A stretch of 64,000 bases of DNA from Leptospiria bacterium (GTDB taxonomy: Bacteria > Spirochaetota > Leptospiria > Turneriellales > CBDBES01), in NCBI GenBank assembly GCA_965204465.1, contig OZ241995.1:1087839-1151838 (forward strand), given 5' to 3'. Position numbers and translations under genes: made by a program. Below the pieces are notes generated by a model. It searched no databases and was not told where the DNA came from. It saw only the letters and a list, made by a program, of their open reading frames with translations. Position 1 is the first letter of the stretch. Each line of letters starts with the position of its first letter. Shown here one piece after another: positions 6,115 through 46,524 of the stretch.

Positions 6115-6120
6115 TCTATA

Positions 6121-6639: not shown

Positions 6640-6748
6640 AAGACACTCCAAATGTTCTTGCTCTTTAAATACTTTCACCTATCCTATTTTGCAGAATTAA
6701 ATAAGAATATGAATTAAGAACCAGACCGTTATTGGTATTCTAATAAAG

Positions 6749-6834
<86 letters not shown>

Positions 6835-6851
6835 GTAATGATCAGATTGGT

Positions 6852-9999: not shown

Positions 10000-10043
10000 A
10001 ATTAGTCTTTCTCAGATATATTGAAATATTCTATACCCTAAAA

Positions 10044-30204: not shown

Positions 30205-30550
30205 CTCCTATCAAATATACAAAAATATTTTTTTTATTGGCAAAAATTATTTCCTTTCTACTTCTCCAGCTTTTATCTTTATCTGTTCCAATTTTTGAAA
30301 GAATTTCAATTTTAGAGTCACTCAGTAACTTAAAACTTTCAGGTCTATTATCGGAGTTATCTTTTTTGATATCTACTTCAATCCACTGGTATTTCTTATA
30401 TTTCTCTATTTCATTTAATTGTCTAAAGGGAATAGGATAAATTCTTCTCCATTCTCCTTTTTCATTAATTCCGGCAGTACATACCAATTCAAAATATTTT
30501 GTAGATAAAGTAGGATAAGTTTTTACCAATACAAATACTTTTTCTTTCAT
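30179..30550 (-). CDS. Hypothetical protein, translationally coupled to the DUF488 gene
   Basis: ATG 30550 (MKEKVFVLVKTYP...) overlaps the DUF488 stop in an ATGA. The track start at 30613 lies inside the upstream gene. The 3' end overlaps the DUF427 start. Confidence 0.45.
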   Translation of the reverse strand: MKEKVFVLVKTYPTLSTKYFELVCTAGINEKGEWRRIYPIPFRQLNEIEKYKKYQWIEVDIKKDNSDNRPESFKLLSDSKIEILSKIGTDKDKSWRSRKEIIFANKKNIFVYLIGGEYESYLE

Positions 30551-31431
30551 AAATGCTCCACTTTCAGGCCATAATATGATTCCATGGCATTTGATAACGT
30601 GGAGCGATGGCAAAAATGATGGTCATTCTCAAAACAGGTAAGAGCGATTCTTTTATTCTCTTTAAACGTAGTATGAATTAAATCAAATTTATCCTTTTTT
30701 TTTAAAACATTTTTTTTATACCTTGAAAATAACTCTTCATAACTTTTTTTGTTAACCAGGTTATTTCTCAACTGACGATCAATACCAAGTTCAGGAATAT
30801 GAATATATTCTTTATTGAGATCATTACAGTATCCTTCAAGTGTTTTTTTTGAAAACCCATATTTCATGCTCACAGGGTTTCTTCTAACATCACATAGTAA
30901 TGAAATATTGTTTTCTATTAATAGGTTTAGATATTCATCGATGCTTCGATTTTCATAGCCTATAGAAAACAAAGTCTCTTCACTTTTCGAATCGATCTTC
31001 ATTTTTGCATCATCAACCAATTTTTTTTCTTCTGCATCTAGATTTCTCTTAATGTTGATGGCCATATAGGGGTAAGATTGATAAACCCTGGAAATAAGAT
31101 AGGATGTACTATGAATATTTTCTTCTTTAAATATTTTTAAAATAATACTTTGATCTTTTGCTTTTAATTGATCAAAATAATTTATATTCGTTTTTTTAAG
31201 GACCCATTTATTCTTTTCATTTTCTAATAAATGGTAAAAATCACTAAGTAAGGTCATGTCTTTATTTGCTTGGAATGAAAAACAGCCATACTTATAGGGG
31301 ATAAAATCAAAAAGTGGTTTTTCTTGAATTTGGCAAATTAAAAAAAGTACCTTCTGAAAATTTAATTTTCCCAAATTTTTTTTTCTAGTTTTTTCCAATA
31401 TTGACAAGAGTAATTTTCTGCGATAATACAT
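30547..31431 (-). CDS. DUF488-domain protein with an uncharacterised ~150-aa N-terminal domain
   Basis: C-terminal half: FSIGYENRSIDEYLNLL...LLCDVRRNPVSMKYGFSKKTL...ALTCFENDHHFCHRS, the DUF488 pattern. Confidence 0.75.
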   Translation of the reverse strand: MYYRRKLLLSILEKTRKKNLGKLNFQKVLFLICQIQEKPLFDFIPYKYGCFSFQANKDMTLLSDFYHLLENEKNKWVLKKTNINYFDQLKAKDQSIILKIFKEENIHSTSYLISRVYQSYPYMAINIKRNLDAEEKKLVDDAKMKIDSKSEETLFSIGYENRSIDEYLNLLIENNISLLCDVRRNPVSMKYGFSKKTLEGYCNDLNKEYIHIPELGIDRQLRNNLVNKKSYEELFSRYKKNVLKKKDKFDLIHTTFKENKRIALTCFENDHHFCHRSTLSNAMESYYGLKVEHL

Positions 31432-31948
31432 CCAGATTTCTATCCGTTTTCTAAAGCTCTTAAATTCCCTAACAGTCCGAGGTAAAAGACTTTCGTCTCT
31501 ATTTCTAATACTTCAAAATACTTAAAGGCACTTTGGTATTACATGTCTCATTTTGGGTCAGTCTTGCGACTATGAATATTATTATTGCCTTTTACCTCAA
31601 TAATAAAATAGTATTTATTCATTATCATTTCGCATTTCTTTTTTACAATTCCAGTATAATTGGCCTATTTCTCAATCTTCTATCATGAGTGTACTTCTTT
31701 ATTTGCATCATCAATAAAACGATAACTAAACTTATATGGCAATTTTTTTACAATTTTAATTTCCCTTTGCATTTCTTCAAATAACTTTAATTGTTTATTT
31801 TCATCTTTTATTGCATTTAATTTTACTTGATCCCATTCCTTCTCGTCATTTTTTATTATCATGTCAAGAATCTTTTGGGCTTGAATTAATAATAACCCTT
31901 CCTGAAATTACATGATCTTTACGATTTAGAAAGTAATAAACTTACTTC

Positions 31949-32254
31949 TTGTTCACCTAAAGGGCACTGCGCTGGCAGTTGCACTGCTAGCTTAGCATTT
32001 CTTTTCACCCAAGGGCACTGCGCTGGCAGTTGCACTGCTAGCTTAGCATTTCTTTTCACCCAAGGGCACTGCGCTGGCAGTTATACTGCTAGCTTAGCAT
32101 TTCTTTTCACCCAAGGGCACTGCGCTAGCAGTTGTACTGCCAGCTTAGCATTTCTTTTCACCCAAGGGCACTGCGCTAGCAGTTGCACTGCTAGCTTAGC
32201 ATTTCTTTTCACCCAAGGGCACTGCGCTAGCAGTTGCACTGCTAGCTTAGCATT
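31949..32254 (+). repeat. Array R1: about 6 tandem copies of a 51-bp GC-rich hairpin unit
   Basis: Unit TTCACCCAAGGGCACTGCGCTGGCAGTTGCACTGCTAGCTTAGCATTTCTT. Unit starts at 31960, 32011, 32062, 32113, 32164 and 32215 give a strict 51-bp period with no spacers. Confidence 0.95.
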
Positions 32255-32278: not shown

Positions 32279-32503
32279 GTGTCATTCACCAGAGAAGAAA
32301 TAGACGAATTCTACAATACATTCAAAGAAGCCTATCTGGCTCTAGCCAGCGGAGTAAAATCCTATACGATAAACACAGGAACCAGTAGCAGGTCCGTAAG
32401 CAGAGCAGATTTACCAGAAATAAAAAAGGAAATGATGTACTGGTCTAAAATGCGCAATCCGTCAGGTGACATAGAAACCATTCAGATAGAACCCAAACTA
32501 TAA
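32279..32503 (+). CDS. Lambda gpW-like head-tail joining protein homolog (copy 1)
   Basis: 74 aa, GTG start 24 nt after R1. TREE...EAYLALASGVKSYTINTGTSSRSVSRADLPEIKKEM aligns with lambda gpW (TRQEE...[31 protein letters not shown]). The stop overlaps the next ATG (TAATG), as at phage W-B junctions. Confidence 0.7.
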   Translation: MSFTREEIDEFYNTFKEAYLALASGVKSYTINTGTSSRSVSRADLPEIKKEMMYWSKMRNPSGDIETIQIEPKL

Positions 32504-33072
32504 TGATCATTACGCATATAAAGACATACTGGAATAGATTAAGGAATATAGTAACAGGATATTATGACGCAGGACGCCGTGACATACCCTCTGTAAAGTC
32601 ATGGCAACCCAAACTATTGACCGCAGATGAAGAATACATCAAAGACTATGATCTCATAAGAGCAAGAAGTAGGGACTTAGTGCGTAACAACCATCTGAAT
32701 GTAAATAAGATCAAGGGCCAGTTATTTAGTTTTTTGCGATCAGAGGACAAGAATATGGCTGGTTATATGTCCTTTCCTGTTCAATACACACAGGAATATT
32801 ATAAGCAGCTTACGGTAGAGACATTGATCAAATCCAAAGACAGGCATGGTTTTTATCGCTATGAGTACAAAAAAGTAAGAGACAGGAATGAGGTTTTAGA
32901 TTGTACAGTATATGCAAGAGCCGCATCGATCCACCTGGGAGTCGATCATTTTACAGACCTTCAGTGGGACTATCTTAAAAAGAAAATCTTAGAAAGTAAA
33001 ACAGGATCCCTATATCATAAAAGACAAAGTTCTGCACGTGTTCAGGTCATCTCTGAAGGGATTGACGTATAA
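32503..33072 (+). CDS. Chimeric ORF: lambda-family portal N-terminal segment fused to terminase large subunit (GpA) C-terminal segment (copy 1, intact frame)
   Basis: aa ~20-70: YYDAGRRD..SVKSWQP..TADEE...IRARSRDLVRNN matches portal gpB (LRSWNP...ARADDLVRNN). aa ~85-175: GYMSFPVQYTQEYYKQLTVE...RDRNEVLDCTVYARAASIHLG matches the gpA C-terminus (GAVHFP...QQLTAEE...RRNEALDCFVYALAAL). Confidence 0.65.
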   Translation: MIITHIKTYWNRLRNIVTGYYDAGRRDIPSVKSWQPKLLTADEEYIKDYDLIRARSRDLVRNNHLNVNKIKGQLFSFLRSEDKNMAGYMSFPVQYTQEYYKQLTVETLIKSKDRHGFYRYEYKKVRDRNEVLDCTVYARAASIHLGVDHFTDLQWDYLKKKILESKTGSLYHKRQSSARVQVISEGIDV

Positions 33073-33400
33073 CAGACAAAGAGTCATAAAACAGGCAAAA
33101 CCATTGATTTTCTGGAAAAAAATCCTCACCAATTGGCACCAGATCAATTCTTTTTTGCATTAAGGTATAACTGGGTTAGAACGAAAACAGAATGCGACAC
33201 AGGGATTTTTTATTTTTTTATTAACCATCATATGTATTTATTGAAGGTGTAGGAAGTTTTTTTAAATTTTTTTGTTGACAGAATATCAAATAATAATCAT
33301 TGACTTGGATTAGACAAGCTAGCCCTAAAATTAATAAGGCTTTTGTCTTACTCTAATATCAAATAAACAAAAAGCAACAGAGTTCAGGAGGATAGTTTTT
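33073..33400 (+). promoter_or_regulatory. Conserved upstream block U1 (promoter/leader module shared by the cassettes)
   Basis: Near-identical to 35681-36026, 39340-39781 and 44401-44579. Contains TTGACA (33275-33280) and TTGACT (33300-33305) -35-like hexamers; the -10 is ambiguous. Has one 51-bp leader unit and AGGAGG (33386-33391) 9 nt before the ATG. Confidence 0.4.
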
Positions 33401-34510
33401 ATGAACAATAGTAAAAAATTTATGCCCCAAAAGTGGTTGATCATATTTTTGATGCCGTTCACTCTTTTGAGGCTTGGTTGTAGCGCTGACTCAGCTAAAT
33501 CTACGGAAAGTCCAATTAATCTGGCTCCTCCGGTTCATGAGACCATACAGGTCACCTCTCCTCCCGACGGTAGTTCCTTTGCAAAGGGAGAGAATATCGT
33601 CTTTAAATTGCAGAAAAAAGATGACAGGGATATTCGAGGGTTGAATGTTTATTTAGATGATAAAAAGGTAGATGTTAGGCATGGTGAGATGTTACCTGAA
33701 GTTTCACCAGGTGAGCATAAACTAAGGTTGGCCATAAACAACAAAACGTTAGATGAGGTGAATTTTACTGTAAAGAAATTGCCTGATGAATCAATGGAAT
33801 ATACGTTCAAATTCAAATTCAGTTACTTAAGAAGGCCATTCGATAATCTAAACTATCATCTGTTTCCAAGTGCCTGCTTACCTAGAGAAGGTATTCAAAC
33901 GAGGCTCACAAAGCAAGATGATTCCGAATGGAAAGACTTTTTACCCAATATATTCACCATGAGCAAGGAATGGAATGCCTTAACTGCTTCCTGGCAAGAG
34001 GGATGGAAAAAATATAGGCACCCTCCCTGTCTCTTGAATAGGGATAAGGCGCATGCAAATGAAGTCTTTATTGATTTCCATATAAAGGCAAACAGAAACA
34101 AGCATCTTTCTAAACCAATACGAATCAATTTTGAATATGACAGAGCATCGCTTCGTCTTAGAACCAGGCTTTTGATCCGTTCTATTTCAGAAATGCGAGA
34201 AATTCTGGGTATTAGGGACAGTATACCCAGAAGCTATCGCATAGATTTCTCAAAAAAGAGCATTCTGATTCTAAATGGTGTGCGTCTTGCCGCCACATCC
34301 GCGTTCTCGGGTTGTAATATAGTTTCTATCTATGACAACCTTGCTGCTATTTACGAATGGAATAATAAACTATACGTTATGACAAAGGCCGTAAAAGAAG
34401 AAGTATTATATGGCGTAGGCTTTTGTTTTGCAATGCTCGAAGGCTTCCATACCATCCTCATTCTTGATTACGCCAAAGACCTTCCTGTAGAGTTTATAGA
34501 GATTCCGTAG
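33401..34510 (+). CDS. Island lipoprotein paralog P1
   Basis: Signal peptide with lipobox-like LLRLGC. Ig-like N-terminal domain (VTSPPDGSSFAKGENIVF). Conserved core ACLP.EGIQTRLTKQDDSEWKDFLPNIFTMSKEWNALT. Family C-terminus DYAKDLPVEFIEIP. Strong RBS. Confidence 0.85.
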   Translation: MNNSKKFMPQKWLIIFLMPFTLLRLGCSADSAKSTESPINLAPPVHETIQVTSPPDGSSFAKGENIVFKLQKKDDRDIRGLNVYLDDKKVDVRHGEMLPEVSPGEHKLRLAINNKTLDEVNFTVKKLPDESMEYTFKFKFSYLRRPFDNLNYHLFPSACLPREGIQTRLTKQDDSEWKDFLPNIFTMSKEWNALTASWQEGWKKYRHPPCLLNRDKAHANEVFIDFHIKANRNKHLSKPIRINFEYDRASLRLRTRLLIRSISEMREILGIRDSIPRSYRIDFSKKSILILNGVRLAATSAFSGCNIVSIYDNLAAIYEWNNKLYVMTKAVKEEVLYGVGFCFAMLEGFHTILILDYAKDLPVEFIEIP

Positions 34511-34604
34511 TCTGTATTTCTCTGGAAAAGCCTACCATTGTATTTTGATCAAAGACAAGCCTAAAAATAGTGGCTTGGCAAGAGAGGATGATCCTGATCA
34601 CCCC

Positions 34605-34862
34605 TTGTTCACCCAAAGGGCACTGCACTGGCGGTTATACTGCCAGCTTAGCATTTCTTTTCACCCAGAGGGCACTGCGCTGGCAGTTGCACTGCTAGCT
34701 TAGCATTTCTTTTCACCCAAGGGCACTGCGCTGGCAGTTGCACTGCTAGCTTAGCATTTCTTTTCACCCAAGGGCACTGCGCTGGCAGTTGCACTGCTAG
34801 CTTAGCATTTCTTTTCACCCAAGGGCACTGCGCTAGCAGTTGCACTGCTAGCTTAGCATTTC
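34605..34862 (+). repeat. Array R2: about 5 copies of the 51-bp unit
   Basis: Same unit and orientation as R1. The first unit is the variant ...GGCACTGCACTGGCGGTTATACTGCC... Confidence 0.95.
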
Positions 34863-34884
34863 TTTCTCTTACTAACCTCTCTCT

Positions 34885-35109
34885 GTGTCATTCACCAGAG
34901 AAGAAATAGACGAATTCTACAATACATTCAAAGAAGCCTATCTGGCCTTAGCCAGCGGAGTAAAATCCTATACCATAAACACAGGAACCAGTAGCAGATC
35001 CGTAAACAGAGCGGATCTTCCAGAAATAAAAAAGGAAATGATGTACTGGTCTAAAATGCGCAATCCGTCAGGTGACATAGAAGCCATTCAGATAGAACCC
35101 AAACTATAA
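34885..35109 (+). CDS. gpW-like protein homolog (copy 2)
   Basis: Differs from copy 1 at 2 of 74 residues (S40N, T65A). Confidence 0.7.
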   Translation: MSFTREEIDEFYNTFKEAYLALASGVKSYTINTGTSSRSVNRADLPEIKKEMMYWSKMRNPSGDIEAIQIEPKL

Positions 35110-35680
35110 TGATCATTGCACATAAAATAAAGACATACTGGAATAGATTAAGGAATATAGTAACAGGATATTATGACGCAGGGCGTCGTGACTACCCTCT
35201 GTAAAATCATGGCAACCAAAACTATTGACCGCAGATGAAGAATACATAAAAGACTATGATCTCATAAGAGCAAGAAGCAGGGACTTAGTGCGTAACAACC
35301 ATCTGAATGTAAATAAGATCAAGGGCCAGTTATTTAGTTTTTTGCGATCAGAGGACAAGAATATGGCTGGTTATATGTCCTTTCCTGTTCAATACACACA
35401 GGAATATTATAAGCAGCTTACAGCAGAGACATTGATCAAATCCAAAGACAGGCATGGTTTCTATCGCTATGAGTACAAAAAAGTAAGAGACAGGAATGAG
35501 GTTTTAGATTGTACAGTATATGCAAGAGCCGCATCGATCCACCTGGGAGTCGATTATTTTACAGACCTTCAGTGGGACTATCTTAAAAAGAAAATCTTAG
35601 AAAGTAAAACAGGATCCCTATATCATGAAAGACAAAGTTCTGCACGTGTTCAGGTCATCTCTGAAGGGATTGACGTATAA
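35109..35680 (+). pseudogene. Portal-N::terminase-C chimeric ORF, copy 2, frameshifted
   Basis: A 1-nt deletion relative to copy 1 (GACATACCC becomes GACTACCC) gives TAA at 35202-35204. The track ORF 35225..35680 is the downstream remainder. Confidence 0.7.
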
Positions 35681-36026: not shown

Positions 36027-37097
36027 ATGAACAACAGTAAAGAATTTATGCCCCAAAAGTGGTTGATCGTATTTTTGGTGCCTCTTGCTCTTTTATGGCT
36101 TGGTTGCACTGATGAAGCCAATACCCCCAATGAGACGAATAAAACTCAAAGGGAAGCGGGCATTAAATCCCCTGCAAATGGCAGTTCTTTTTCAAAAGGA
36201 GAAGATATTTCATTTCAATTAAGTAAAACGGATTTGGATATGCAAGGCATAGATCTTTATCTGGATAGGCGAAAAATTGATATTCATCAAGGGGATATGC
36301 TACCTGAACTTTCAGTAGGTGAGCATAAACTAAGGTTGGACATAAGCAACAAAACGGTGGATGAGGTGATTTTTACTGTAAAGAAATTGCCTGATGAATC
36401 AATGGAATATATGTTCAGGTTCAAATTCAGTTCTTTAAAGGGGGATGGTTACCTATATCCAAGTGCCTGTTTACCTAAGAAAGGTATTCAAACGAGGCTC
36501 ACAAAACAAGATGATTCCGAATGGAAAGATTTTTTACCCAATATATTCACCATGAGCAAGGAATGGAATGCCCTGACTGCTTCCTGGCAAGAGGGAAGGG
36601 GAGAATATGGCCCCCCTCCCTGTCTCTTGAATAGGGATAAGGTGCATGCAAATGAAGTTTTTATTGACTTCTATATAAAGGCAAACAGAAGCAAGCATCT
36701 TTCTAAACCAATAAGGATCAATTTTGAATCTAACAGGAGTTCACTTGGTCGTAGAGCCGGGCTTTTGATCCGCTCTATTTCAGAAATGCGAGAAATTCTG
36801 GGTATTAGGGACAGTATACCCAGAAGCTATCGCATAGATTTCTCAAAAAAGAGTATTCTGACTCTAAGTTATTTTCGTGTCGTACCCGAGTCAGGAGGTT
36901 GTCATCTAACTTCTATTTATGACAACCTTACTGCCATTTACGAATGGAATAATAAATTGTACGTTATGACGAAGGCCGTAACAAATGAAATCGTATATCC
37001 TGAAGGCCCTTGTTTTGCAATTTTGACAGGCTTCAGTAGAAGCCTAATTCTTGATTACGCCAAAGACCTTCCTGTAGAGTTTATAGAGATTCCGTAG
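36027..37097 (+). CDS. Island lipoprotein paralog P2 (patchwork of P4-like and P1-like segments)
   Basis: The signal peptide plus TDEANTPNETNKTQREAGIKSPANG... matches P4. VKKLPDESMEY and LLIRSISEMREILGIRDSIPRSYRIDF match P1. Confidence 0.85.
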   Translation: MNNSKEFMPQKWLIVFLVPLALLWLGCTDEANTPNETNKTQREAGIKSPANGSSFSKGEDISFQLSKTDLDMQGIDLYLDRRKIDIHQGDMLPELSVGEHKLRLDISNKTVDEVIFTVKKLPDESMEYMFRFKFSSLKGDGYLYPSACLPKKGIQTRLTKQDDSEWKDFLPNIFTMSKEWNALTASWQEGRGEYGPPPCLLNRDKVHANEVFIDFYIKANRSKHLSKPIRINFESNRSSLGRRAGLLIRSISEMREILGIRDSIPRSYRIDFSKKSILTLSYFRVVPESGGCHLTSIYDNLTAIYEWNNKLYVMTKAVTNEIVYPEGPCFAILTGFSRSLILDYAKDLPVEFIEIP

Positions 37098-37148
37098 CCC
37101 GTATTTTGATCAAAGACAAGCCTAAAAATAGTGGCTTGGCAAGAGAGG

Positions 37149-38225
37149 ATGATTTTAATAAAGAAGATGATACGAAATATTCTGTTTACCTTTCTGTTAC
37201 TACCTTATTTTTTAGGGTTTAGTTGCACAGACAACTCCAATATTGCTGATAACAATTCAGACGAATATGATGTGGTTCCTCAAAGGGAAGCGGGCATTAA
37301 ATCCCCTGCAAATGGTAGTTCTTTTTCAAAAGGAGAAGATATTTCATTTCAATTAAGTAAAACGGATTTGGATATGCAAGGCATAGATCTTTATCTGGAT
37401 AGACGAAAAATTGATATTCATCAAGGGGATATGCTACCTGAACTTTCAGTAGGTGAGCATAAACTAAGGTTGGACATAAACAACAAAACGGTGGATGAGG
37501 TAACCTTTAATGTAACAGAAGCGGAATATACGTTCAGATTCAAATTCAGTTATTTAAATGCGGATGGTGGCCTATATCCAAGTGCCTGTTTACCTAAGAA
37601 AGGTATTCAAACGAGGCTCACAAAACAAGATGATTCCGAATGGAAAGATTTTTTGCCAAATATATTCACCATGAGTAAGGAATGGAATGCCTTAACTACT
37701 TCCTGGCAAGAGGGAAGGGAAGAATATGGCCCCCCTCCCTGTCTCTTGAATGAAGATAAGGCGCATGCAAATGAAGTTTTTATTGACTTCTATATAAAGG
37801 CAAATAAAAGTAAGCATCTTTCTAAGTCAATATGGATCAATTTTGAATATCGTAGAATATCGCGTTATAATAATTTTAAGGCCGGGCTTTTGATCCGTTC
37901 TCTTTCAGAAATGCAAGAACTTCTGGGTTATCGTAACAGGATACCCGAAAGATATCGTATAGATTTTTCAAAAAAGAGTATTTTGACTCTAAAGGGCCCT
38001 ACTATTGATGGATGCGAAATCAGTGGTTGTGGTTTCGCTTCTGCTTATGACATCCTTGCCGCCATTTACGAGTGGAATAATAAATTATACATTATGACAA
38101 AAGTCGCACCAAAAGAAATATTATATCCCGTGGGTCCTTGTACTGCATGCTTGCAAGGTTCCAATGCCATCCTAATTCTGGATTACGCCAAAGACCTTCC
38201 CTTAGAGTTCATAGAGATTCCGTAG
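37149..38225 (+). CDS. Island lipoprotein paralog P3 (own signal peptide, no upstream U block)
   Basis: MILIKKMIRNILFTFLLLPYFLGFSC signal/lipobox. The start is ambiguous (37131 GTG, 37149 or 37167 ATG). The 5' end is built on a truncated copy of the conserved 3' flank of P2. From QREAGIK onward it is almost identical to P4. Confidence 0.8.
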   Translation: MILIKKMIRNILFTFLLLPYFLGFSCTDNSNIADNNSDEYDVVPQREAGIKSPANGSSFSKGEDISFQLSKTDLDMQGIDLYLDRRKIDIHQGDMLPELSVGEHKLRLDINNKTVDEVTFNVTEAEYTFRFKFSYLNADGGLYPSACLPKKGIQTRLTKQDDSEWKDFLPNIFTMSKEWNALTTSWQEGREEYGPPPCLLNEDKAHANEVFIDFYIKANKSKHLSKSIWINFEYRRISRYNNFKAGLLIRSLSEMQELLGYRNRIPERYRIDFSKKSILTLKGPTIDGCEISGCGFASAYDILAAIYEWNNKLYIMTKVAPKEILYPVGPCTACLQGSNAILILDYAKDLPLEFIEIP

Positions 38226-38294
38226 CCCGTATTTTGATCAAAGACAAGCCTAAAAATAGTGGCTTGGCAAGAGAGGATGATCCTGATTCACCCC

Positions 38295-38524
38295 TTGTTC
38301 ACCCAAAGGACACTGCACTGGCAGTTGCACTGCTAGCTTAGCATTTCTTTTCACCCAAGGGCACTGCGCTAGCAGTTGCACTGCTAGCTTAGCATTTCTT
38401 TTCATTTCTTAATGCTGCTTCTTAGCTAATGTTAGCATTCTTATTTGTTCACCCAAGGGCACTGCACTAGCAGTTGCACTGCTAGTTTAGTATTTCTTAA
38501 TGAAATTTTTATTTACAGCATTCT
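38295..38524 (+). repeat. Array R3: about 3 degenerate copies of the 51-bp unit, interrupted by AT-rich insertions
   Basis: Two good units (38295-38400), then interrupted or decayed units ending in ...AGCATTCTATTCTCTTAC, as in R1. Confidence 0.85.
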
Positions 38525-38546: not shown

Positions 38547-38771
38547 GTGTCATTCACCAGAGAAGAAATAGACGAATTCTACAATACATTCAAAGAAGCC
38601 TATCTGGCTCTAGCCAGCGGAGTAAAATCCTATACGATAAACACCGGAACCAGTAGCAGGTCCGTAAGCAGAGCAGATTTACCAGAAATAAAAAAGGAAA
38701 TGATGTACTGGTCTAAAATGCGCAATCCGTCAGGTGACATAGAAACCATTCAGATAGAACCCAAACTATAA
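38547..38771 (+). CDS. gpW-like protein homolog (copy 3)
   Basis: Protein identical to copy 1. Confidence 0.7.
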   Translation: MSFTREEIDEFYNTFKEAYLALASGVKSYTINTGTSSRSVSRADLPEIKKEMMYWSKMRNPSGDIETIQIEPKL

Positions 38772-39339
38772 TGATCATTACGCATATAAAGACATACTGG
38801 AATAGATTAAGGAATATAGTAACAGGATATTATGACGCAGGACGTCGTGACTACCCTCTGTAAAGTCATGGCAACCCAAACTATTGACCGCAGATGAAGA
38901 ATACATCAAAGACTATGATCTCATAAGAGCAAGAAGTAGGGACTTAGTGCGTAACAACCATCTGAATGTAAATAAGATCAAGGGCCAGTTATTTAGTTTT
39001 TTGCGATCAGAGGACAAGAATATGGCTGGTTATATGTCCTTTCCTGTTCAATACACACAGGAATATTATAAGCAGCTTACGGTAGAGACATTGATCAAAT
39101 CCAAAGACAGGCATGGTTTTTATCGCTATGAGTACAAAAAAGTAAGAGACAGGAATGAGGTTTTAGATTGTACAGTATATGCAAGAGCCGCATCGATCCA
39201 CCTGGGAGTCGATCATTTTACAGACCTTCAGTGGGACTATCTTAAAAAGAAAATCTTAGAAAGTAAAACAGGATCCCTATATCATGAAAGACAAAGTTCT
39301 GCACGTGTTCAGGTCATCTCTGAAGGGATTGACGTATAA
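38771..39339 (+). pseudogene. Portal-N::terminase-C chimeric ORF, copy 3, frameshifted
   Basis: Same 1-nt deletion as copy 2, giving TAA at 38861-38863. The remainder is ORF 38884..39339. Confidence 0.7.
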
Positions 39340-39781
39340 CAGACAAAGAGTCATAAAACAGGCAAAACCATTGATTTTCTGGAAAAAAATCCTCACCAAT
39401 TGGCACCAGATCAATTCTTTTTTGCATTAAGGTAACTGGGTTAGAACGAAAACAGAATGCGACACAGGGGATTTTTTATTTTTTTATTAACCATCATATG
39501 TATTTATTGAAGATGTAGGAAATTTTTTTAAATTTTTTTGTTGACAGAATATCAAATAATAATCATTGACTTGGAAAAGACAGGCTAGCCCTAAAATTAA
39601 TAAGGCTTTTGTCTTACTCTAATAGCAAATAAATAAAAGGCTTATTAAAAATAGGGCTTTTGTCTTACTCTAATATCAAATAAATAAAAGACTTATTAAA
39701 AATAAGGCTTTTGTCTTACTCTAATAGCACATAAATAAAAGGCTGACTAAAAAGTAGAAGATATATTAGGAGGATATACTT
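39340..39781 (+). promoter_or_regulatory. Conserved upstream block U3 with a triplicated leader unit
   Basis: TTGACA at 39541-39546. Three 51-bp leader units (39602, 39653, 39704). AGGAGG lies before ATG 39782. Confidence 0.4.
39602..39754 (+). repeat. Leader repeat: 3 x 51 bp, AT-rich
   Basis: Unit (A/G)AGGCTTTTGTCTTACTCTAATA(G/T)CA(A/C)ATAAATAAAAG(G/A)CTTATTAAAAAT. There is one copy in U1 and U2, three here, and two at 44464-44565. Confidence 0.85.
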
Positions 39782-40258
39782 ATGAGATTAAGTTTAAATT
39801 ATGGAAGATTTTCATTTAAAAATTTATTTTTTGTCGCAGTATTAGGTTTGACTATCACCTTTTCTGCATGTATACAGAGTGGGGATACTTTGGGGAATTA
39901 CTCAGATAGCAAAGCTGACATTACATTGATTGATAAAAGTAGTCGGCTATTAAGCGAATCTTTTGTATCTTTGCCTCCTGATGATGTCAATGAAGATGAA
40001 GCAATTCTGATACAAGAGAATAAAGTCGAGCATGCAGAACCTGATTATAATCTGGTAAAAAATTCAAATGGTCTAAACGGAGTAGAAGGGTGGAGGGTAA
40101 CCAAGGAAAAGGGAAATGGTTTTTTTTATCAGGGAAAAAACTCTTCTAATCTGGAATCTGGCAAGTACTTTGGCACATCTTATGGATGGAGTGTCAAAAG
40201 ACAGATCATTGATTTGGAAGCGGAGTGCGTTATGTTGTCTTTAAGCATGCAGGCGTAA
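39782..40258 (+). pseudogene. Lipoprotein signal plus the N-terminal half of an FBA (F-box-associated, glycan-binding type) domain; disrupted 5' part of the protease gene
   Basis: Signal peptide with lipobox-like TFSAC. NLVKNSNGLNGVEGW...GKYFGTSYGWSVKRQIIDLEAE parallels FBXO2 NLLRNPCGEEDLEGW...KKYFASSFEWCRKAQVIDLQAEG. The frame ends 34 nt into the next ORF. Confidence 0.6.
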
Positions 40259-42150
40259 GCAGCAGAGAAGAACCGCAAGAAGATTATTACGGCACACGAA
40301 TGAGGAATGCTACATTAAACATAAGTTTTCCACAAGAATTTTCTATGAAAGAAAGCTCTGTTATTGCAGAAGCTCTGCAAAACAAATTAAATGAGATGTC
40401 AGATCAAGAGATGATACCCGTTTCGGTTCTATGCAGGGATCCGCTGGTTAATGAAAATGATCTTTCCGCCTTTTCCGCTGGTTTCGAGGTGGACCAGGGC
40501 AATATCAAAAATGTTCAACTGGCTTCAAGTGATGAAGAGACGGTATCTGATCTAGAGCTGGTTTCTACTTTAGAGGAACAAGTAGAGATCATGAACCAAA
40601 AAGTCCTTTCTCAGATAAATCAAATGAAAAAGAAAAAAATTGAGGCTTATAGAGAAGATATTGATGAACTCACAGAGATGACGAATATAGATATAATGGG
40701 TCGTTCCTCTGGTGTAGCAGAATCCATTGGATTCGTTAAAGTTGAATTGAGCAAGGCAGAGATAGAAACCATAGCTCAATATGAAAATATCGTACAGACA
40801 ATAGATGTGCAATCAGAAGCAGACAATGACTTGGATTCTGCCTATACAGAGACAAAAATGGACCAGGCCCATCATGTCGAACATGATTCTGCCAGACAAA
40901 CAGGTTCGGGAGTCAATGTCTATATGTCTGAGGCGGATAATAACTGCTTTGACCCAAACACATATAATTTTGGGACCTGGATTCCAGGATATATTCCAGA
41001 TGTTGCATCAACAGGAAGGTATTGGGAGGATCGCCCTACTAGTGATCATGCTACACAAGTTGCTCAATCTCTAGTAGTTACTGCTCCTCATATTACTTTA
41101 TATTGTTCTACTAAGAGTTATCTATTCTCTCGCAGTTTAAAAGATCGGATACATATCATCAACTATTCTTGGACGGATCCCGGGTATGAAGGGGGTGCTG
41201 CTAATACTACTAGCTGGTTACCGCAAGACTCCTTATCCGATAGGTATGTTTGGAGAGATCGGATAGCTATATTTAAGAGTGCTGGTAATAATTGTAATAT
41301 TCCTGAGGGACACTGTCAAGTTACTTCCCCTGGAAAGGCGCACAATGTTATCACGGTTGGTGCTTATGATGATAGAACAGATAGGATGGGTACTTTTTCC
41401 CGTACAGTTGATCCAGAAACAAATGCGATCAAACCTGAGATCGTAGCCCCTGGTGTTTCTCTCCGATTTCCTGCTTCCGTTAATGCAAGTGAAGTCACAT
41501 CTTGGAATAATCATCTTCTTAGCGGTACTAGCTATTCCACTCCTCTGGCGGCCGGTATGGCTGCCTCTGTTACATCAAGATATACTCTACTCAAAAAGCA
41601 ACCTCATTTGATCAAGGCCAGTATGCTTGCTATGTCCGCCAAAGACATTCAAAGCGGGACTAGTGCCGATGGTGTAGGTGCCATTCAATGGAATGAGGAT
41701 GGAAATTATCGTTACTGGTCGAACTATAATAATAATTTTCTGGTAACAGGCGGCTGGAAATTGATTCATGAATATAATGTTTATAGAAACAACAAAAAAG
41801 TCAGGGTCGTCATATCATGGCTCAATGATGTAAATAAATGTGACAGTAGCACAGCTAAATTATGTATGGATATAGATTTAAAAGTTCATGGTCCTAATAA
41901 TGAATATATAGATCATGACTACCGGAATAGCCATGATGATGAATATGCTCCAAATAACATAACGAACAATAACTGGAGAATGGTAGAGTTCACGACAAGA
42001 AAAACAGGTAAATATAAGGTCTATGTATGGCGCCGTAGTAACTGGCATACAAAGACGAAAAGATGCTTTCTGTGGATTTGTTGGGGGCATAAGAAGCATT
42101 ACAGTAAAGTCAACCTGGGTCTTAGAATTGCCTACATTGATTATGATTAA
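40225..42150 (+). CDS. Subtilisin-like (S8) serine protease with an FBA C-terminal remnant, an I9-like propeptide and a C-terminal beta-sandwich domain
   Basis: The N-terminus VRYVVFKHAG...DYYGTRMRNATLNI matches the FBA C-terminus (VRFVRFEHGG..WFGARVTNSSV). Candidate Asp segment GSGVNVYMSEAD, His in SDHATQVAQ, Asn in FKSAGNN, Ser in SGTSYSTPLAAGMAA. No signal peptide in this frame. Confidence 0.8.
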   Translation: MRYVVFKHAGVSSREEPQEDYYGTRMRNATLNISFPQEFSMKESSVIAEALQNKLNEMSDQEMIPVSVLCRDPLVNENDLSAFSAGFEVDQGNIKNVQLASSDEETVSDLELVSTLEEQVEIMNQKVLSQINQMKKKKIEAYREDIDELTEMTNIDIMGRSSGVAESIGFVKVELSKAEIETIAQYENIVQTIDVQSEADNDLDSAYTETKMDQAHHVEHDSARQTGSGVNVYMSEADNNCFDPNTYNFGTWIPGYIPDVASTGRYWEDRPTSDHATQVAQSLVVTAPHITLYCSTKSYLFSRSLKDRIHIINYSWTDPGYEGGAANTTSWLPQDSLSDRYVWRDRIAIFKSAGNNCNIPEGHCQVTSPGKAHNVITVGAYDDRTDRMGTFSRTVDPETNAIKPEIVAPGVSLRFPASVNASEVTSWNNHLLSGTSYSTPLAAGMAASVTSRYTLLKKQPHLIKASMLAMSAKDIQSGTSADGVGAIQWNEDGNYRYWSNYNNNFLVTGGWKLIHEYNVYRNNKKVRVVISWLNDVNKCDSSTAKLCMDIDLKVHGPNNEYIDHDYRNSHDDEYAPNNITNNNWRMVEFTTRKTGKYKVYVWRRSNWHTKTKRCFLWICWGHKKHYSKVNLGLRIAYIDYD

Positions 42151-42170
42151 AGAATCTGGTTTTTAAAACA

Positions 42171-42635
42171 ATGACCATTTTTACTAAAAATATTTTTTTA
42201 TTTTATTTTACCTTTAATAGTATTCTATGCTCGGAAATTGTAGATGATCAAACATCTAGATCAGATAAAGGTCTTCCTGTCTTCATTGAAGAGATCATTG
42301 CCCCTGAACAGGTTTCCTCTTCTGAAACAAGTTTTGATATTCGATTGAAAGGCAATACTTCTAAATCTGATATAAATTGCTCAAAAATTCAATACAATGC
42401 TACAGTGACGGAAACCAGTCTAAATTTATCCGTGGAAAGAGTTGCTCCGCCGCCCTTTCGGCTAGACGATGGTTCTATTTCTACTGCTTGCAATGATCAA
42501 GTAGTCCCTTTTGGTGAAAGGATTTATACGGTAAAGGCAAATCCTCATTTTGCTTTGGGTGACTTTTTGATCACTATTCAAAATCCAGATTATCAAGGTG
42601 ATGATCTTCAAAAAGTAGTGAAGATCGTCGAATAA
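42171..42635 (+). CDS. Small secreted/lipoprotein S1 downstream of the protease
   Basis: Hydrophobic N-terminus ending in SILC. Paralog of S2, sharing the blocks SSSETSFDIRLKGNTSKSDINC and VPFGER.YTVKANP.FALGDF.ITIQNPD..GDDLQKVVKIVE. Confidence 0.65.
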   Translation: MTIFTKNIFLFYFTFNSILCSEIVDDQTSRSDKGLPVFIEEIIAPEQVSSSETSFDIRLKGNTSKSDINCSKIQYNATVTETSLNLSVERVAPPPFRLDDGSISTACNDQVVPFGERIYTVKANPHFALGDFLITIQNPDYQGDDLQKVVKIVE

Positions 42636-42711
42636 TGATCTTTCAAAAGAAACAGAATTTAATTGAAAGAAATCCATTCAATTCATCTATGATGGATCAA
42701 ATATCCCCCCC

Positions 42712-42813
42712 TTGTTCACCCAAATGGCACTGCACTAGCAGTTGCACTGCCAGCTTAGCATTTCTTTTCACCCAAGGGCACTGCGCTGGCAGTTGCACTG
42801 CCAGCTTAGCATT
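42712..42813 (+). repeat. Array R4: 2 copies of the 51-bp unit, cut mid-unit
   Basis: Ends ...GCCAGCTTAGCATT and is joined directly to AATATAATGTTTATAG, which equals 41771 onward. Confidence 0.9.
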
Positions 42814-43220
42814 AATATAATGTTTATAGAAACAACAAAAAAATCAGGGTCGTCATATCATGGCTCAATGATGTAAATAAATGTGACAGTAGCACAGCTA
42901 AATTATGTATGGATTTAGATTTAAAAGTTCATGGTCCTAATAATGAATATATAGATCATGACTACCGGAATAGCCATGATGATGTATATGCTCCAAATAA
43001 CATAACGAACAATAACTGGAGAATGGTAGAGTTCACGACAAGAAAAACAGGTAAATATAAGATTTATGTATGGCGCCGTAGTAACCGGTATTTATCAGTG
43101 AGGCTATGCAGCCCATTTTTTTCTAGTCGGCCTTTTTTTGTGGGGTGTCGTTCTACAGAAATCAGGGTCTACAATAAAGTCAACCTGGGTCTTAGAATTG
43201 CCTACATTGATTATGATTAA
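42814..43220 (+). pseudogene. Duplicated 3' fragment of the S8 protease gene (no start; corresponds to 41771-42150)
   Basis: In-frame YNVYRNNKKIRVVISWLNDVNKCDSSTAKLCMDLDLKVHGPNN... is preceded by TAA. It is identical to the parent except for a replaced in-frame segment (43086-43175 versus about 42043-42105). Confidence 0.85.
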
Positions 43221-43632
43221 GTGGATCATTTTTTCTTCTTTAATTTTTGTTTCTTCTTCATGCTCTGAGTCTCCTGAGTCTGAGACTCAATATAGCATTA
43301 AGAATATCTATATTGAAGAAGTGGATGTTCCCAGAGAAGTTTCCTCTTCTGAAACAAGTTTTGATATTCGATTGAAAGGCAATACTTCTAAATCTGATAT
43401 AAATTGCGAAGAAATCCGATATGAGTCTATAATAAGCAAAACAAGTCTGAAATTAGCAGTAAAAGGATATAGTTATCCTAGACTATGTAGTGCATTGATA
43501 GTTCCCTTTGGCGAAAGGGTTTATACGGTAAAGGCAAATCCTTATTTTGCTCTGGGTGATTTTATGATCACCATTCAAAATCCAGATCGTGCAGGTGATG
43601 ATCTTCAAAAAGTAGTGAAGATCGTCGAATAA
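43213..43632 (+). CDS. Small lipoprotein S2 (paralog of S1)
   Basis: MIKWIIFSSLIFVSSSC signal/lipobox. The ATG overlaps the stop of the protease fragment. The track start at 43138 is an upstream read-in. Confidence 0.65.
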   Translation: MIKWIIFSSLIFVSSSCSESPESETQYSIKNIYIEEVDVPREVSSSETSFDIRLKGNTSKSDINCEEIRYESIISKTSLKLAVKGYSYPRLCSALIVPFGERVYTVKANPYFALGDFMITIQNPDRAGDDLQKVVKIVE

Positions 43633-43708
43633 TGATCTTTCAAAAGAAACAGAATTTAATTAAAATAAATCCATTCAATTCATCTATGATGGATCAAATA
43701 TCCCCCCC

Positions 43709-44035
43709 TTGTTCACCCAAATGGCACTGCACTAGCAGTTGCACTGCCAGCTTAGCATTTCTTTTCACCAAAAGGGCACTGCGCTGGCAGTTGCACTGCT
43801 AGCTTAGCATTTCTTTTCACCAAAAGGGCACTGCGCTGGCAGTTGCACTGCTAGCTTAGCATTTCTTTTCACCCAAGGGCACTGCGCTGGCAGTTGTACT
43901 GCCAGCTTAGCATTTCTTTTCACCCAAGGGCACTGCGCTAGCAGTTGCACTACTAGCTTAGCATTTCTTTTCACCCAAGGGCACTGCACTGGCGGTTATA
44001 CTGCCAGTTTAGCATTTCTTTTCACCCAGAGGGCA
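43709..44035 (+). repeat. Array R5: about 6.4 copies of the 51-bp unit
   Basis: Same unit and orientation. Point variants between units, e.g. CACCAAAAGGG, TTGTACTGCC, TTGCACTACT. Confidence 0.95.
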
Positions 44036-44400
44036 TAGAAAAATGGAACACCATTCTATTTTCTGTTTTTTCTTCTTCCTAATTTACTCTTGAGTAAGAC
44101 GAACGGTTGGGAACGCAGGCAAGGATGCCTGCGAAATGGAGCGTCTTTGCCATGGATGCAAAACATGGATGTTTTGCAAGGCTGCCTGACCTTACCCCAA
44201 GCACCTGACATCCTATCAGGTCGCTTGCCCCTACAAAACATCCGTGTTTTGTAGGTTACAGGATGTAACCCGTCCAGCCGCTTGTGCAGACGAAGTCTGT
44301 GAACTTCCATGTGAAAAAAGAAAGAAAAATAGCTATTCTTTTTACACAAAAAGACCTGTGCCCGTAGGGTGAAATGGGTAGCAAAGTAGCAGGTTTTTTT
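44036..44400 (+). other. GC-rich multi-hairpin element, copy A (possible structured RNA or MITE-like element)
   Basis: A series of perfect hairpins: CGCAGGCA-AGGA-TGCCTGCG, GCAAAACAT-GG-ATGTTTTGC, ACCTGA-CATCCTA-TCAGGT, CTACAAAACA-TCCG-TGTTTTGTAG and GGTTACA-GGA-TGTAACC. It sits where the gpW module sits in cassettes 1-3. Confidence 0.6.
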
Positions 44401-44579
44401 TGTTGACAGAATATCAAATAATAATCATTGACTTGGAAAAGACAGGCTAGCCCTAAAATTAATAAGGCTTTTGTCTTACTCTAATAGCACATAAATAAAA
44501 GGCTTATTAAAAATAGGGCTTTTGTCTTACTCTAATATCAAATAAACAAAAAGCAACAGAGTTTAGGAGGATAGTCTTT
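44401..44579 (+). promoter_or_regulatory. Conserved upstream block U4 (3' part only) with a duplicated leader unit
   Basis: Starts at TGTTGACAGAATATC (TTGACA 44403-44408). Two 51-bp leader units (44464, 44515). TAGGAGG-N9-ATG. Confidence 0.4.
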
Positions 44580-45644
44580 ATGAACAATAGTAAAAAATTT
44601 ACATTCCAAAAGTGGTTGATCATATTTTTGATGCCTCTTGCTCTTTTATGGCTTGGTTGCACTGATGAAGCCAATACCCCCAATGAGACCAATAAAACTC
44701 AAAGGGAAGCGGGCATTAAATCCCCTGCAAATGGCAGTTCTTTTTCAAAAGGAGAAGATATTTCATTTCAATTAAGTAAAACGGATTTGGATATGCAAGG
44801 CATAGATCTTTATCTGGATAGGCGAAAAATTGATATTCGTCAAGGGGATATGCTACCTGAACTTTCAGTAGGTGAGCATAAACTAAGGTTGGACATAAAC
44901 AACAAAACGGTGGATGAGGTAACCTTTAATGTAACAGAAGCGGAATATACGTTCAGATTCAAATTCAGTTATTTAAATGCGGATGGTGGCCTATATCCAA
45001 GTGCCTGTTTACCTAAGAAAGGTATTCAAACGAGGCTCACAAAACAAGATGATTCCGAATGGAAAGATTTTTTGCCAAATATATTCACCATGAGTAAGGA
45101 ATGGAATGCCTTAACTACTTCCTGGCAAGAGGGAAGGGAAGAATATGGCCCCCCTCCCTGTCTCTTGAATGAAGATAAGGCGCATGCAAATGAAGTTTTT
45201 ATTGACTTCTATATAAAGGCAAATAAAAGTAAGCATCTTTCTAAACCAATATGGATCAATTTTGAATTTCATAGAGAACTGCTTAGTAATAATTTTAAGG
45301 CCGGGCTTTTGATCCGTTCTCTCTCGGAAATGCAAGAACTTCTGGGTTATCGTAACAGGATACCCGAAAGATATCGTATAGATTTTTCAAAAAAGAGTAT
45401 TCTGACTCTAAAGGGCCCTACTATTGATGGATGCGAAATCAGTGGTTGTGGTTTCGCTTCTGCTTATGACATCCTTGCCGCCATTTACGAGTGGAATAAT
45501 AAATTATACATTATGACAAAAGTCGCACCAAAAGAAATATTATATCCCGTGGGTCCTTGTGCTGCATGCTTGCAAGGTTCCAATGCCATCCTAATTCTCG
45601 ATTACGCCAAAGACCTTCCTGTAGAGTTTATAGAGATTCCGTAG
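44580..45644 (+). CDS. Island lipoprotein paralog P4
   Basis: The N-terminal ~115 aa match P2 and the rest matches P3. Lipobox-like LLWLGC. C-terminus DYAKDLPVEFIEIP. Confidence 0.85.
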   Translation: MNNSKKFTFQKWLIIFLMPLALLWLGCTDEANTPNETNKTQREAGIKSPANGSSFSKGEDISFQLSKTDLDMQGIDLYLDRRKIDIRQGDMLPELSVGEHKLRLDINNKTVDEVTFNVTEAEYTFRFKFSYLNADGGLYPSACLPKKGIQTRLTKQDDSEWKDFLPNIFTMSKEWNALTTSWQEGREEYGPPPCLLNEDKAHANEVFIDFYIKANKSKHLSKPIWINFEFHRELLSNNFKAGLLIRSLSEMQELLGYRNRIPERYRIDFSKKSILTLKGPTIDGCEISGCGFASAYDILAAIYEWNNKLYIMTKVAPKEILYPVGPCAACLQGSNAILILDYAKDLPVEFIEIP

Positions 45645-45713
45645 TCTGTATTTTGATCAAAGACAAGCCTAGGAATAGTGGCTTGGCAAGAGAGGATGAT
45701 CCTGATTCACCCC

Positions 45714-45783
45714 TTGTTCACCCAAAGGGCACTGCACTGGCAGTTGCACTGCCAGCTTAGCATTTCTTTTCACCCAGAGGGCA
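45714..45783 (+). repeat. Array R6: about 1.4 copies of the 51-bp unit
   Basis: Has the same start (CCCTTGTTCACCCAAAGGGCACTGCACTGG) and the same exit junction (CACCCAGAGGGCATAGAAAAATGG) as R5. Confidence 0.85.
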
Positions 45784-46264
45784 TAGAAAAATGGAACACC
45801 ATTCTATTTTCTGTTTTTTCTTCTTCCTAATTTACTCTTGAGTAAGACGAACGGTTGGGAACGCAGGCAAGGATGCCTGCGAAATGGAGCGTCTTTGCCA
45901 TGGATGCAAAACATGGATGTTTTGCAAGGCTGGGGATTGGGTTACAGGATGTAACCACCCAGCCTAACTTCTATGGCAAAGTAGCGGGTTTTTTTCACCC
46001 TACGGCACAGGTCTTTGTTTCTTTCTTTTTTTTACATGTAAAACATGGATGTTTTACATGGCTGCCTGACCTTACCCCAAGCACCTGACATCCTATCAGG
46101 TCGCTTGCCCCTACAAAACATCCGTGTTTTGTAGGTTACAGGATGTAACCCGTCCAGCCGCTTGTGCAGACGAAGTCTGTGAACTTCCATGTGAAAAAAG
46201 AAAGAAAAATAGCTATTCTTTTTACACAAAAAGACCTGTGCCCGTAGGGTGAAATGGGTAGCAA
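45784..46264 (+). other. GC-rich multi-hairpin element, copy B, with a ~130-bp internal partial inverted duplication
   Basis: Equals copy A plus an insert at 45933-46062. That insert contains CACCCTACGGCACAGGTCTTT...ACATG, the inverted repeat of CATGT...AAAGACCTGTGCCCGTAGGGTG at 46188-46250. Confidence 0.6.
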
Positions 46265-46524
46265 TACAGGAGAAGACTAAAAAAATAAAAAAGATCTGCA
46301 CCCGTAAATGAGAAGAAAAGTGGAATGCTATTCTAATTATAAGATAAAGTATAACAAATTGCTAGCCTTTTGGGGAGATTACTTGTGCCCACTGCAAATT
46401 ATTTTTTTACTTAAAAATTTTCCTCTGGAATTTTATCTCTTAACTAATTCTATTAGAAAAAAGAATTAGAAAAAGTAGAATAAATTTTTTGTTGAAACAA
46501 AAATATAATGTGACATAATAATTT

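Follow-up and report, generated by a model that had tools for sequence, protein, structure and literature searches.

The 64,000-nucleotide stretch of a Leptospiria bacterium analysed here (contig OZ241995.1, positions 1,087,839 to 1,151,838 of the forward strand; hereafter the window) carries three near-identical copies of a small relic of a lambda-like prophage. Each copy consists of an open reading frame (ORF) of 74 amino acids (aa) for a head-tail adaptor and a second, chimeric ORF, in which the beginning of a portal gene is joined to the end of a large terminase gene. According to the reading that we prefer, with a probability of roughly 0.7, the relic is a non-functional prophage fossil that was fused by a head-to-tail rearrangement and then copied as a passenger in an array of lipoprotein genes.

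The relic copies lie on the forward strand at 32279-33072, 34885-35680 and 38547-39339, within a repeat-rich block (31.9-46.5 kb) that ends at a transfer-messenger RNA (tmRNA) gene. Repeat periods of the relic units are 2608 and 3659 nucleotides (nt). A tandem array of a 51-bp unit stands before each copy, and about 330 bp of intergenic DNA follow it. Next after copies 1 and 2 stands a lipoprotein gene with a strong ribosome-binding site, and after copy 3 a gene for a protein with an F-box-associated (FBA) domain, followed by a subtilase gene. The original prediction, made from the letters of the DNA, had claimed three near-identical copies at these positions, and this is confirmed at 96-99.6% identity. 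In pairwise comparison the adaptor ORFs are 96.0% (copies 1 and 2), 99.6% (1 and 3) and 95.6% (2 and 3) identical at the nucleotide level and the chimeric ORFs 97.7%, 99.6% and 98.1%, respectively. Since the copies carry private substitutions, they are genuinely separate loci.

The chimeric ORF of copy 1 (32503-33072) is intact and encodes 189 aa, namely about 65 N-terminal residues of a portal protein (approximately codons 1-65, 32503 to about 32697) followed, from about codon 66, by the last 124 or so residues of a GpA-type large terminase. The chimera matches the Pfam family GpA_nuclease with an E-value of 8e-20 (71.6 bits, cut-off 22.5; aa 53-148 on profile positions 196-290 of 294) and the large terminase family phrog_15 with 1.5e-24. 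The match to Phage_portal_2 (PF05136) covers aa 31-65 on profile positions 5-39 of 354 (E 2.6e-4) and, at 20.7 bits, stays under the Pfam cut-off of 32.9. Of the hits that a filter-only HMMER search gave among 1.84 billion representative proteins, the top 150 were inspected. The best portal was P0009 (496 aa, PF05136), its residues 17-76 aligning with aa 4-63 of the chimera at 70% identity (E 4.8e-19). The best terminase was P0007 (574 aa), whose residues 422-553 align with aa 46-177 at 54% identity. The predicted fusion of a portal N-terminus to a terminase C-terminus is borne out by these searches, P0009 and P0007 matching different parts of the chimera. The hits exceed chance level by a wide margin.

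A residue-level comparison places the joint between RSRDLVRNNH and LNVNKIKGQLF, at about codons 64-67; homology to the terminase begins near aa 66, and that to the portal spans aa 1-70. A terminase homology reaching back to aa 15, as suggested by the tblastn hits to phage WO, was rejected, its N-terminal part being a weak extension. The chimera ends in EGIDV directly before its stop codon, like P0007 in EGIDI, and hence the native C-terminus and stop codon of the terminase were kept. A full-length PF05136 domain is absent, leaving a portal fragment, and the combination of a PF05876 ATPase and a complete PF20454 nuclease that defines a GpA-type terminase is likewise absent, as no GpA_ATPase (PF05876) match was found in the chimera by the Pfam search. 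The chimera is without the terminase ATPase domain and two thirds of the nuclease domain, and very little of the portal is left in it; it cannot package DNA.

In the other two copies the chimeric ORF is interrupted. Copies 2 (35109-35680) and 3 (38771-39339) share a 1-nt deletion, GACATACCC having become GACTACCC, which creates early stops at 35200-35202 and 38859-38861, exactly as had been described. Copy 2 additionally carries an in-frame AAA insertion after codon 5 and still has an ORF of 151 aa, which begins with TTG at 35225. Portal homologues have RRD(I/L)xSVKSWQP where the deletion lies; the undeleted state, found in copy 1 and in a sister strain described below, is therefore ancestral.

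The adaptor is intact in all three copies, as predicted, and starts with GTG in each (32279-32503, 34885-35109 and 38547-38771). Relative to copy 1, copy 2 has nine nucleotide differences, six synonymous and three non-synonymous by the Nei-Gojobori method, and copy 3 a single synonymous one. The TAA stop overlaps the ATG of the portal-derived ORF (TAATG), another feature that the original prediction had correctly noted. The encoded protein matches the PHROG family phrog_118, annotated as a head-tail adaptor, with an E-value of 1.2e-10, its residues 1-57 aligning with profile positions 1-52 of 76. In two metagenomic phage contigs, L003 (ENA ERZ25072448) and L004 (ENA ERZ26693861), small genes that stand after the terminase gene and just upstream of the portal gene encode proteins with 55-62% identity to it, and these homologues match phrog_118 as well (1e-9 and 3.6e-7). 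The reported alignment with lambda gpW, however, could not be reproduced at the sequence level. Lambda W and the adaptor of phage WO belong to another family, phrog_75 ('head-tail adaptor Ad1'; 2.9e-36 and 1.3e-15), which is not the best PHROG family of the window adaptor; hhalign against lambda W yields a non-significant probability of 0.2%, and a profile search of the PDB gives no sequence link to gpW. The Pfam search of the adaptor returned DUF6148, at an E-value of 4.7e-4 and below the cut-off, and no other family. An AlphaFold model computed from the single sequence (predicted local distance difference test score 84) shows a helix-hairpin-helix arrangement with helices at 5-23 and 42-59 and strands at 28-32 and 37-41. 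When this model was compared with the PDB by Foldseek, no match reached an E-value of 0.001 or less; best by target-normalised template modelling score (0.71) was lambda gpW (2l6q), with a root-mean-square deviation of 1.7 Å, a probability of 0.82 and an E-value of 1.5. The adaptor is thus gpW-like by position and, judging from the model, probably by fold, but not by sequence family.

The native arrangement of these genes can be read from the two phage contigs. In L003 the terminase gene (7734-9458) is followed, after a gap of 240 bp, by the adaptor gene (9698-9937) and by a portal gene that starts at 9934. In L004 the terminase gene (6021-7724) and the adaptor gene (9769-10008) are separated by about 2 kb with five small genes, and the portal gene starts at 10001. 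The adaptors of both contigs have 79 aa, their genes overlap the portal gene, and protease and capsid genes follow the portal. Phage WO and lambda share the order terminase, adaptor, portal. Compared with this order the relic is circularly permuted, in agreement with the original prediction.

No protein was found that resembles the chimera over its whole length. Among the 150 inspected hits from the 1.84 billion representatives none matches both the portal and the terminase part. The chimera was not found in GTDB representative genomes, Joint Genome Institute (JGI) metagenomes or IMG/VR, and searches of 5.8 billion proteins with chimera and adaptor returned their own clusters and nothing else. 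A parental phage having the chimera as a normal gene did not turn up in these searches, and a literature search for comparable joints found nothing specific. Since the relatives have the native order and no other chimera was found, the fusion is best understood as the joint of a head-to-tail rearrangement, and this part of the original prediction is supported. A tandem duplication, a deletion between tandem prophages and a deletion within a concatemer would all give the same joint. The joint is directly visible in the DNA; the event that produced it we infer.

The extent of the phage-derived DNA is small. Matches to L003 and L004 in the window between 31 and 47 kb comprise the adaptor, the portal N-terminus, the terminase C-terminus and a stub of about 45 nt behind the terminase part; L003/L004-type matches to Nu1, protease and capsid genes are absent from the same interval. 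The stub belongs to a retained terminase-adaptor intergenic stretch on the forward strand (33073-33225) that ends in a T-run. Within it, 33087-33130 corresponds to L003 9461-9505, the stretch that immediately follows the terminase stop there (alignment z 4.5, higher than in any of 300 shuffles), and a weak further match to L003 is seen at TGCGACACAGG (z 3.4); no homology to L003 is detectable in the stretch past these two. Similarity to L003 can no longer be detected upstream of the adaptor start codon, and on this comparison the start codon itself is taken as the left edge of the phage-derived DNA. The whole relic, made up of adaptor, chimera and intergenic stub, measures about 0.95 kb. The original prediction had the junction between terminase and adaptor replaced by the 51-bp array. 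Indeed, the array ends 24 nt before the GTG of copy 1, but about 45 nt of native sequence following the terminase survive. The native upstream region of the adaptor is gone, and the adaptor sits right after arrays of a hairpin plus T-run. Neither a Shine-Dalgarno sequence upstream of its GTG nor, in a promoter scan, a sigma-70-like promoter ahead of it was found; the lipoprotein genes, by contrast, possess an AGGAGG.

The sister strain, sampled in ENA ERZ25068762, sheds light on how the relic was multiplied. Two contigs from this sample, L005 and L087, were compared with the window; both are metagenome contigs of 2x coverage in which repeats may have collapsed, so that copy numbers may be underread. 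The left flank of L005 is 99.6% identical to window positions 30213-31887 and continues with a different insert and a degenerate 51-bp unit. It then carries one adaptor together with an intact 189-aa chimera (K37R), one lipoprotein gene and a GC-rich element, which in the window adjoins the tmRNA gene. The triplication of the original prediction is therefore to be supplemented by a strain with one relic copy and an intact chimera. The intact joint in L005 means that the joint is older than the split of the strains, with a copy number varying between one and three. L087 contains at least five tandem lipoprotein units that have neither adaptor nor chimera; their spacers consist of a single 51-bp unit, the GC-rich element and a shared promoter region. 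The same type of spacer occurs in a relic-free unit of the window (43708-45644, forward strand), which comprises a 51-bp array, the GC-rich palindromic element at 44036-44400, the promoter region and a lipoprotein gene (paralogue 4, 44580-45644). Paralogues 1 to 3 lie on the same strand at 33401-34510, 36027-37097 and 37131-38225, the first of them with a strong AGGAGG ribosome-binding site.

Considering the single copy in L005 and the relic-free lipoprotein arrays, the relic looks like a passenger in the amplification of the lipoprotein genes. Most likely, this amplification drives the repeats and the relic travels in some of the units. The lipoprotein family is small, with 11 clusters among the 5.8 billion proteins. 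In distant relatives the lipoprotein is encoded by an ordinary chromosomal gene in a single copy or two copies, with no phage genes nearby, and the idea that it is phage cargo was rejected on account of these contexts. A derivation of the lipoprotein promoter from the phage promoter between terminase and adaptor was likewise dismissed, as no significant similarity was found.

At the place where the window has its first 51-bp array, L005 contains an ORF of 332 aa (2242-3240) that is absent from the window. Its product has about seven repeats of about 45 residues (ALYTVDTTTG.ATRVGS...GLAAIG.TLYMVG), which resemble beta-propeller blades.

According to the original prediction, copies 2 and 3 descend from a common intermediate. 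This is too simple in view of the mosaic pattern of shared sites. Copy 2 has about 20 private substitutions, all between the positions corresponding to 32341 and 32947; they cluster at 32341-32670, and none occurs in 32671-32813, the segment that spans the joint. In the coding region copy 3 agrees with copy 1 everywhere but at 32577, the deletion at 32584 and 33019, where it equals copy 2. The sites 32577 and 32584 lie 7 nt apart and are flanked by the copy-1-like sites 32574 and 32598, and past 33019 copy 3 again equals copy 2. This arrangement points to a gene-conversion mosaic of the relic copies, although three copies give no tree conflict as such.

Several observations weigh against the reading as a non-functional prophage fossil. 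Between copies 1 and 2, synonymous changes account for 15 of 22 substitutions, compared with 6.5 expected if the same base changes are placed at random (P ~1e-4). By the Nei-Gojobori method the proportions of differing non-synonymous (pN) and synonymous (pS) sites are 0.017 and 0.130 in the adaptor (Fisher P 0.003) and 0.009 and 0.078 in the chimera (Fisher P 1.7e-4); with the L005 copy added, roughly 18 changes are synonymous and 7 non-synonymous. Such a bias is not expected of a purely neutral fossil. Divergence is also uneven, the non-coding stub after the chimera being 99-99.5% identical among the copies while the adaptor of copy 2 is only 96% identical; with an almost invariant stub, uniform neutral divergence in place does not fit. 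The adaptor is intact in all four known copies and the chimera in two of them (copy 1 and L005). Moreover, the tmRNA gene at the end of the block (46525-46868, reverse strand; tag DDNLNYALAA), whose 3' end faces the repeat region, belongs to a class of genes that are classic integration sites of islands, and the window contains no repeat of this end exceeding 12-14 nt. Among the ORFs from 31.9-46.5 kb covered by the Pfam scan there is no integrase. The relation between relic region and tmRNA gene is one of adjacency only, without the marks of a prophage inserted at a tmRNA gene.

The synonymous bias is not spread evenly over the relic. It sits in the adaptor and the portal N-terminus, with about 15 synonymous to 4-5 non-synonymous changes. 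The terminase part of the chimera looks neutral, with 2 synonymous to 3 non-synonymous changes; of the latter, V105 and H149 are derived relative to P0007. The claim that the chimera is decaying holds for the two of three chimeras with a frameshift, but has to be set against substitutions that favour synonymous sites. The bias suggests either a constraint at the protein level after the fusion or conversion from a related functional phage.

The second of these possibilities, which we advance tentatively and hold to be somewhat unlikely, still treats the relic as a fossil, in which patches of adaptor and portal N-terminus were replaced, through gene conversion, by sequence of a related functional phage or prophage whose genes had diverged under selection. 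Adaptor and portal N-terminus, to which the bias is confined, are contiguous in the phage, and the terminase part is free of it. The clustering of the private changes of copy 2, their absence around the joint, the near invariance of the adjoining non-coding stub and the short conversion tracts evident between the copies all agree with such a process. On the other hand, the collection of 5.8 billion proteins, which holds the proteins of this genome, contains no close intact adaptor, portal or terminase that might represent the donor; the nearest relatives are 55-70% identical. In addition, the frameshift of copy 2 lies inside the supposed tract.

We consider it unlikely that the locus arose in one step, with lipoprotein gene and 51-bp array being prophage cargo between terminase and adaptor, the whole segment being amplified in tandem and the chimera marking the joint of each unit. 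The periodic order of chimera, intergenic DNA, lipoprotein gene, array, adaptor and chimera, repeated at 2608 and 3659 nt, is what this proposal leads one to expect. The interval between terminase and adaptor is indeed a variable cargo slot in L004, and a hairpin motif from the corresponding interval of L003 is found again in the GC-rich spacer of those lipoprotein units that lack the relic. Nevertheless, L005 has the joint with a single unit, lipoprotein arrays occur where there is no relic, and the intact terminase on the left and the intact portal on the right that a one-step amplification predicts are absent. The chromosomal setting of the lipoprotein gene in distant relatives and the dissimilarity of its promoter region to the phage intergenic region, both described above, argue in the same direction.

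Domestication of the relic would mean that the adaptor, and perhaps the chimera, is kept by selection, possibly as a decoy that disturbs the docking of terminase and portal or the completion of heads in superinfecting phages related to the parent. All three pieces touch the portal vertex in lambda, where gpA binds the prohead portal with its C-terminal residues. The synonymous excess in adaptor and portal N-terminus is in line with domestication, as are the insertion of an entire in-frame codon in copy 2, the intact state of all four adaptors and of two chimeras, including that of the sister strain, and the retention of the terminase tail with its native C-terminal end. We nonetheless regard domestication as rather improbable. 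In this genome the chimera is frameshifted in two of three copies, its terminase part looks neutral, the adaptor is preceded by neither promoter nor ribosome-binding site, and no homologous chimera came to light in the protein and genome collections searched. No known defence protein is matched either; for adaptor, chimera, lipoprotein and neighbouring proteins PADLOC-DB 2.0 gave no match at an E-value of 0.1 or below. Furthermore, at a divergence of 4% or less an intact ORF of 74 codons is expected by chance. Most improbable of all is the more specific proposal that adaptor and fusion form a host-kept pair which disturbs head completion or terminase-portal docking of superinfecting phages.

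The prophage fossil carried along by lipoprotein genes thus remains the reading that we favour, and we propose the following course of events. The parental phage would have had the order terminase, intergenic region, adaptor and portal that is seen in the relatives. A head-to-tail rearrangement, either a tandem duplication with end points in both genes or a deletion, be it between tandem prophages or inside a concatemer, would have fused approximately codon 65 of the portal gene in frame to about the last 124 terminase codons. The remainder of the prophage would then have been lost, so that adaptor, joint and the stub downstream of the terminase remained. The remnant lies between a 51-bp array and a lipoprotein promoter, and unequal crossing-over would have copied it as a passive passenger, in units of 2.6-3.7 kb, as the lipoprotein family expanded beside the tmRNA gene. 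That the copying was passive is suggested by the copy-number differences between strains and by the relic-free arrays. Presumably, the copies exchanged patches by gene conversion. In two of the three the chimera is frameshifted.

Compared with known systems, the relic is closest to the lambda-type Nu1-A-W-B module of lambda and WO. Judged by their domains, its pieces come from the same three gene families as there, comprising the C-terminus of the GpA nuclease, the N-terminus of a lambda-family portal and a small adaptor. Among deposited phages WO terminases are the best matches, at 37-52% identity. In contrast to the complete module, the relic retains fragments of portal and terminase, fused in permuted order, and its adaptor belongs to a different PHROG family. 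The closest relatives of all are L003 and L004, with identities of 55-62% for the adaptor, about 70% for the portal N-terminus and 54-61% for the terminase C-terminus, and their samples come from the same ENA series as, or are identical with, samples that yielded contigs of this bacterial lineage. Unlike the relic, they have complete genes and no chimera, 51-bp array or lipoprotein gene. The tight coupling of adaptor stop and portal start is common to the relic, lambda, L003 and L004. In cryptic prophage remnants and novel-joint genes a piece of a late operon is stranded in the chromosome, an ORF is fused at a head-to-tail joint and frameshifts mark decay, all of which applies to the relic; its re-amplification inside a lipoprotein array and its synonymous-biased substitutions are unlike the usual cases. 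The packaging interference exerted by Ppi and Rpp of phage-inducible chromosomal islands resembles the decoy idea conceptually, as a host-resident protein targets the packaging of an incoming phage, but the relic has no sequence relationship to these proteins, no PADLOC match and no satellite genes.

For the most part the finding is ordinary: a tidy cryptic prophage remnant whose fused ORF preserves the joint of a rearrangement. It is useful as a marker of lipoprotein amplification and of gene conversion between units, and it provides evidence that phages with GpA-type terminases and lambda-type portals, distantly WO-like, infect this lineage. RpoA places the uncultured host in Leptospirales; at 65-71% identity to metagenome-assembled genomes of Turneriella and Leptospiraceae, the lineage is an unrepresented one. 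For annotation, the 'proteins' of 189 and 151 aa are to be marked as terminase/portal fragments. The sole feature that might rise above the ordinary is the synonymous-biased divergence, provided that it is due to selection on the relic itself. Were that the case, a host-kept pair would amount to a defence built from fragments of packaging machinery, with a copy number raised along with that of surface lipoprotein genes.

The 51-bp unit, TTCACCCAAGGGCACTGCGCTGGCAGTTGCACTGCTAGCTTAGCATTTCTT, forms arrays of one to six copies located 70-95 nt downstream of lipoprotein and secreted-protein genes. Tandem Repeats Finder delimits those to the left of the relic units at 31946-32254 (six units), 34604-34865 (five units) and 38294-38404 (short and partly degenerate); further arrays lie at 42711-42813, 43708-44035 and 45713-45775. 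Each unit consists of a 9-bp hairpin and a subsequent T-rich run, and the fold of a single unit is not significant (z -1.2). The period corresponds to 17 codons, and the minus strand is open through the arrays. The unit was found in this lineage only, with single copies in L005 and L087, and is absent from JGI metagenomes.

The GC-rich element is strongly self-complementary (RNA fold z = -6) and occurs at 44036-44400 and 45780-46270, between 51-bp arrays and lipoprotein promoters and beside the tmRNA gene. The hairpin motif GGTTACAGGAYGTAACC and flanking bases are also found in an element of about 130 nt that is present twice in L003 (2540-2760 and 9500-9620), where one copy lies between the terminase and adaptor genes. 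Host and phage may share the GC-rich element as a small mobile palindromic element. It has no match in Rfam, and a scan of the region against this database gave chance-level hits only.

A second tandem repeat of 51 bp, unrelated to the first, is found in three copies at 39599-39753 (AATAAGGCTTTTGTCTTACTCTAATAGCAAATAAATAAAAGGCTTATTAAA), in the promoter-leader region after copy 3; single copies of AATAAGGCTTTTGTCTTACTCTAATAGCAAATAAATAAAAGGCTTATTAAA sit in the leaders of lipoprotein genes. The genes following copy 3 (39782-43632) encode the FBA-domain protein (Pfam 3.7e-10), the subtilase and a small secreted protein. The FBA domain is mostly eukaryotic. The ORF of the FBA protein overlaps the start of the 641-aa S8 subtilase ORF. 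The 3' end of the subtilase gene and the gene of the small protein are duplicated about 1 kb downstream, 41767-42048 matching 42810-43091 at 97% and 42171-42635 being paralogous to 43138-43632.

Two further observations concern regions outside the repeat block. On the minus strand at 58793-62149, two adjacent ORFs resemble parts of a PglX-type adenine methyltransferase of the bacteriophage exclusion (BREX) system, and one of them also matches a domain of the transposase associated with repetitive extragenic palindromes (REP-associated tyrosine transposase/IS200-like). The local GC content reaches 44% there, compared with a background of 35%. These ORFs may represent a split or rearranged defence methyltransferase. 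Finally, the listed dxs ORF (6786-8795), which starts with a GTG, overlaps the same-strand tRNA-Leu(GAG) gene at 6749-6834; the real start of dxs must therefore lie further downstream.

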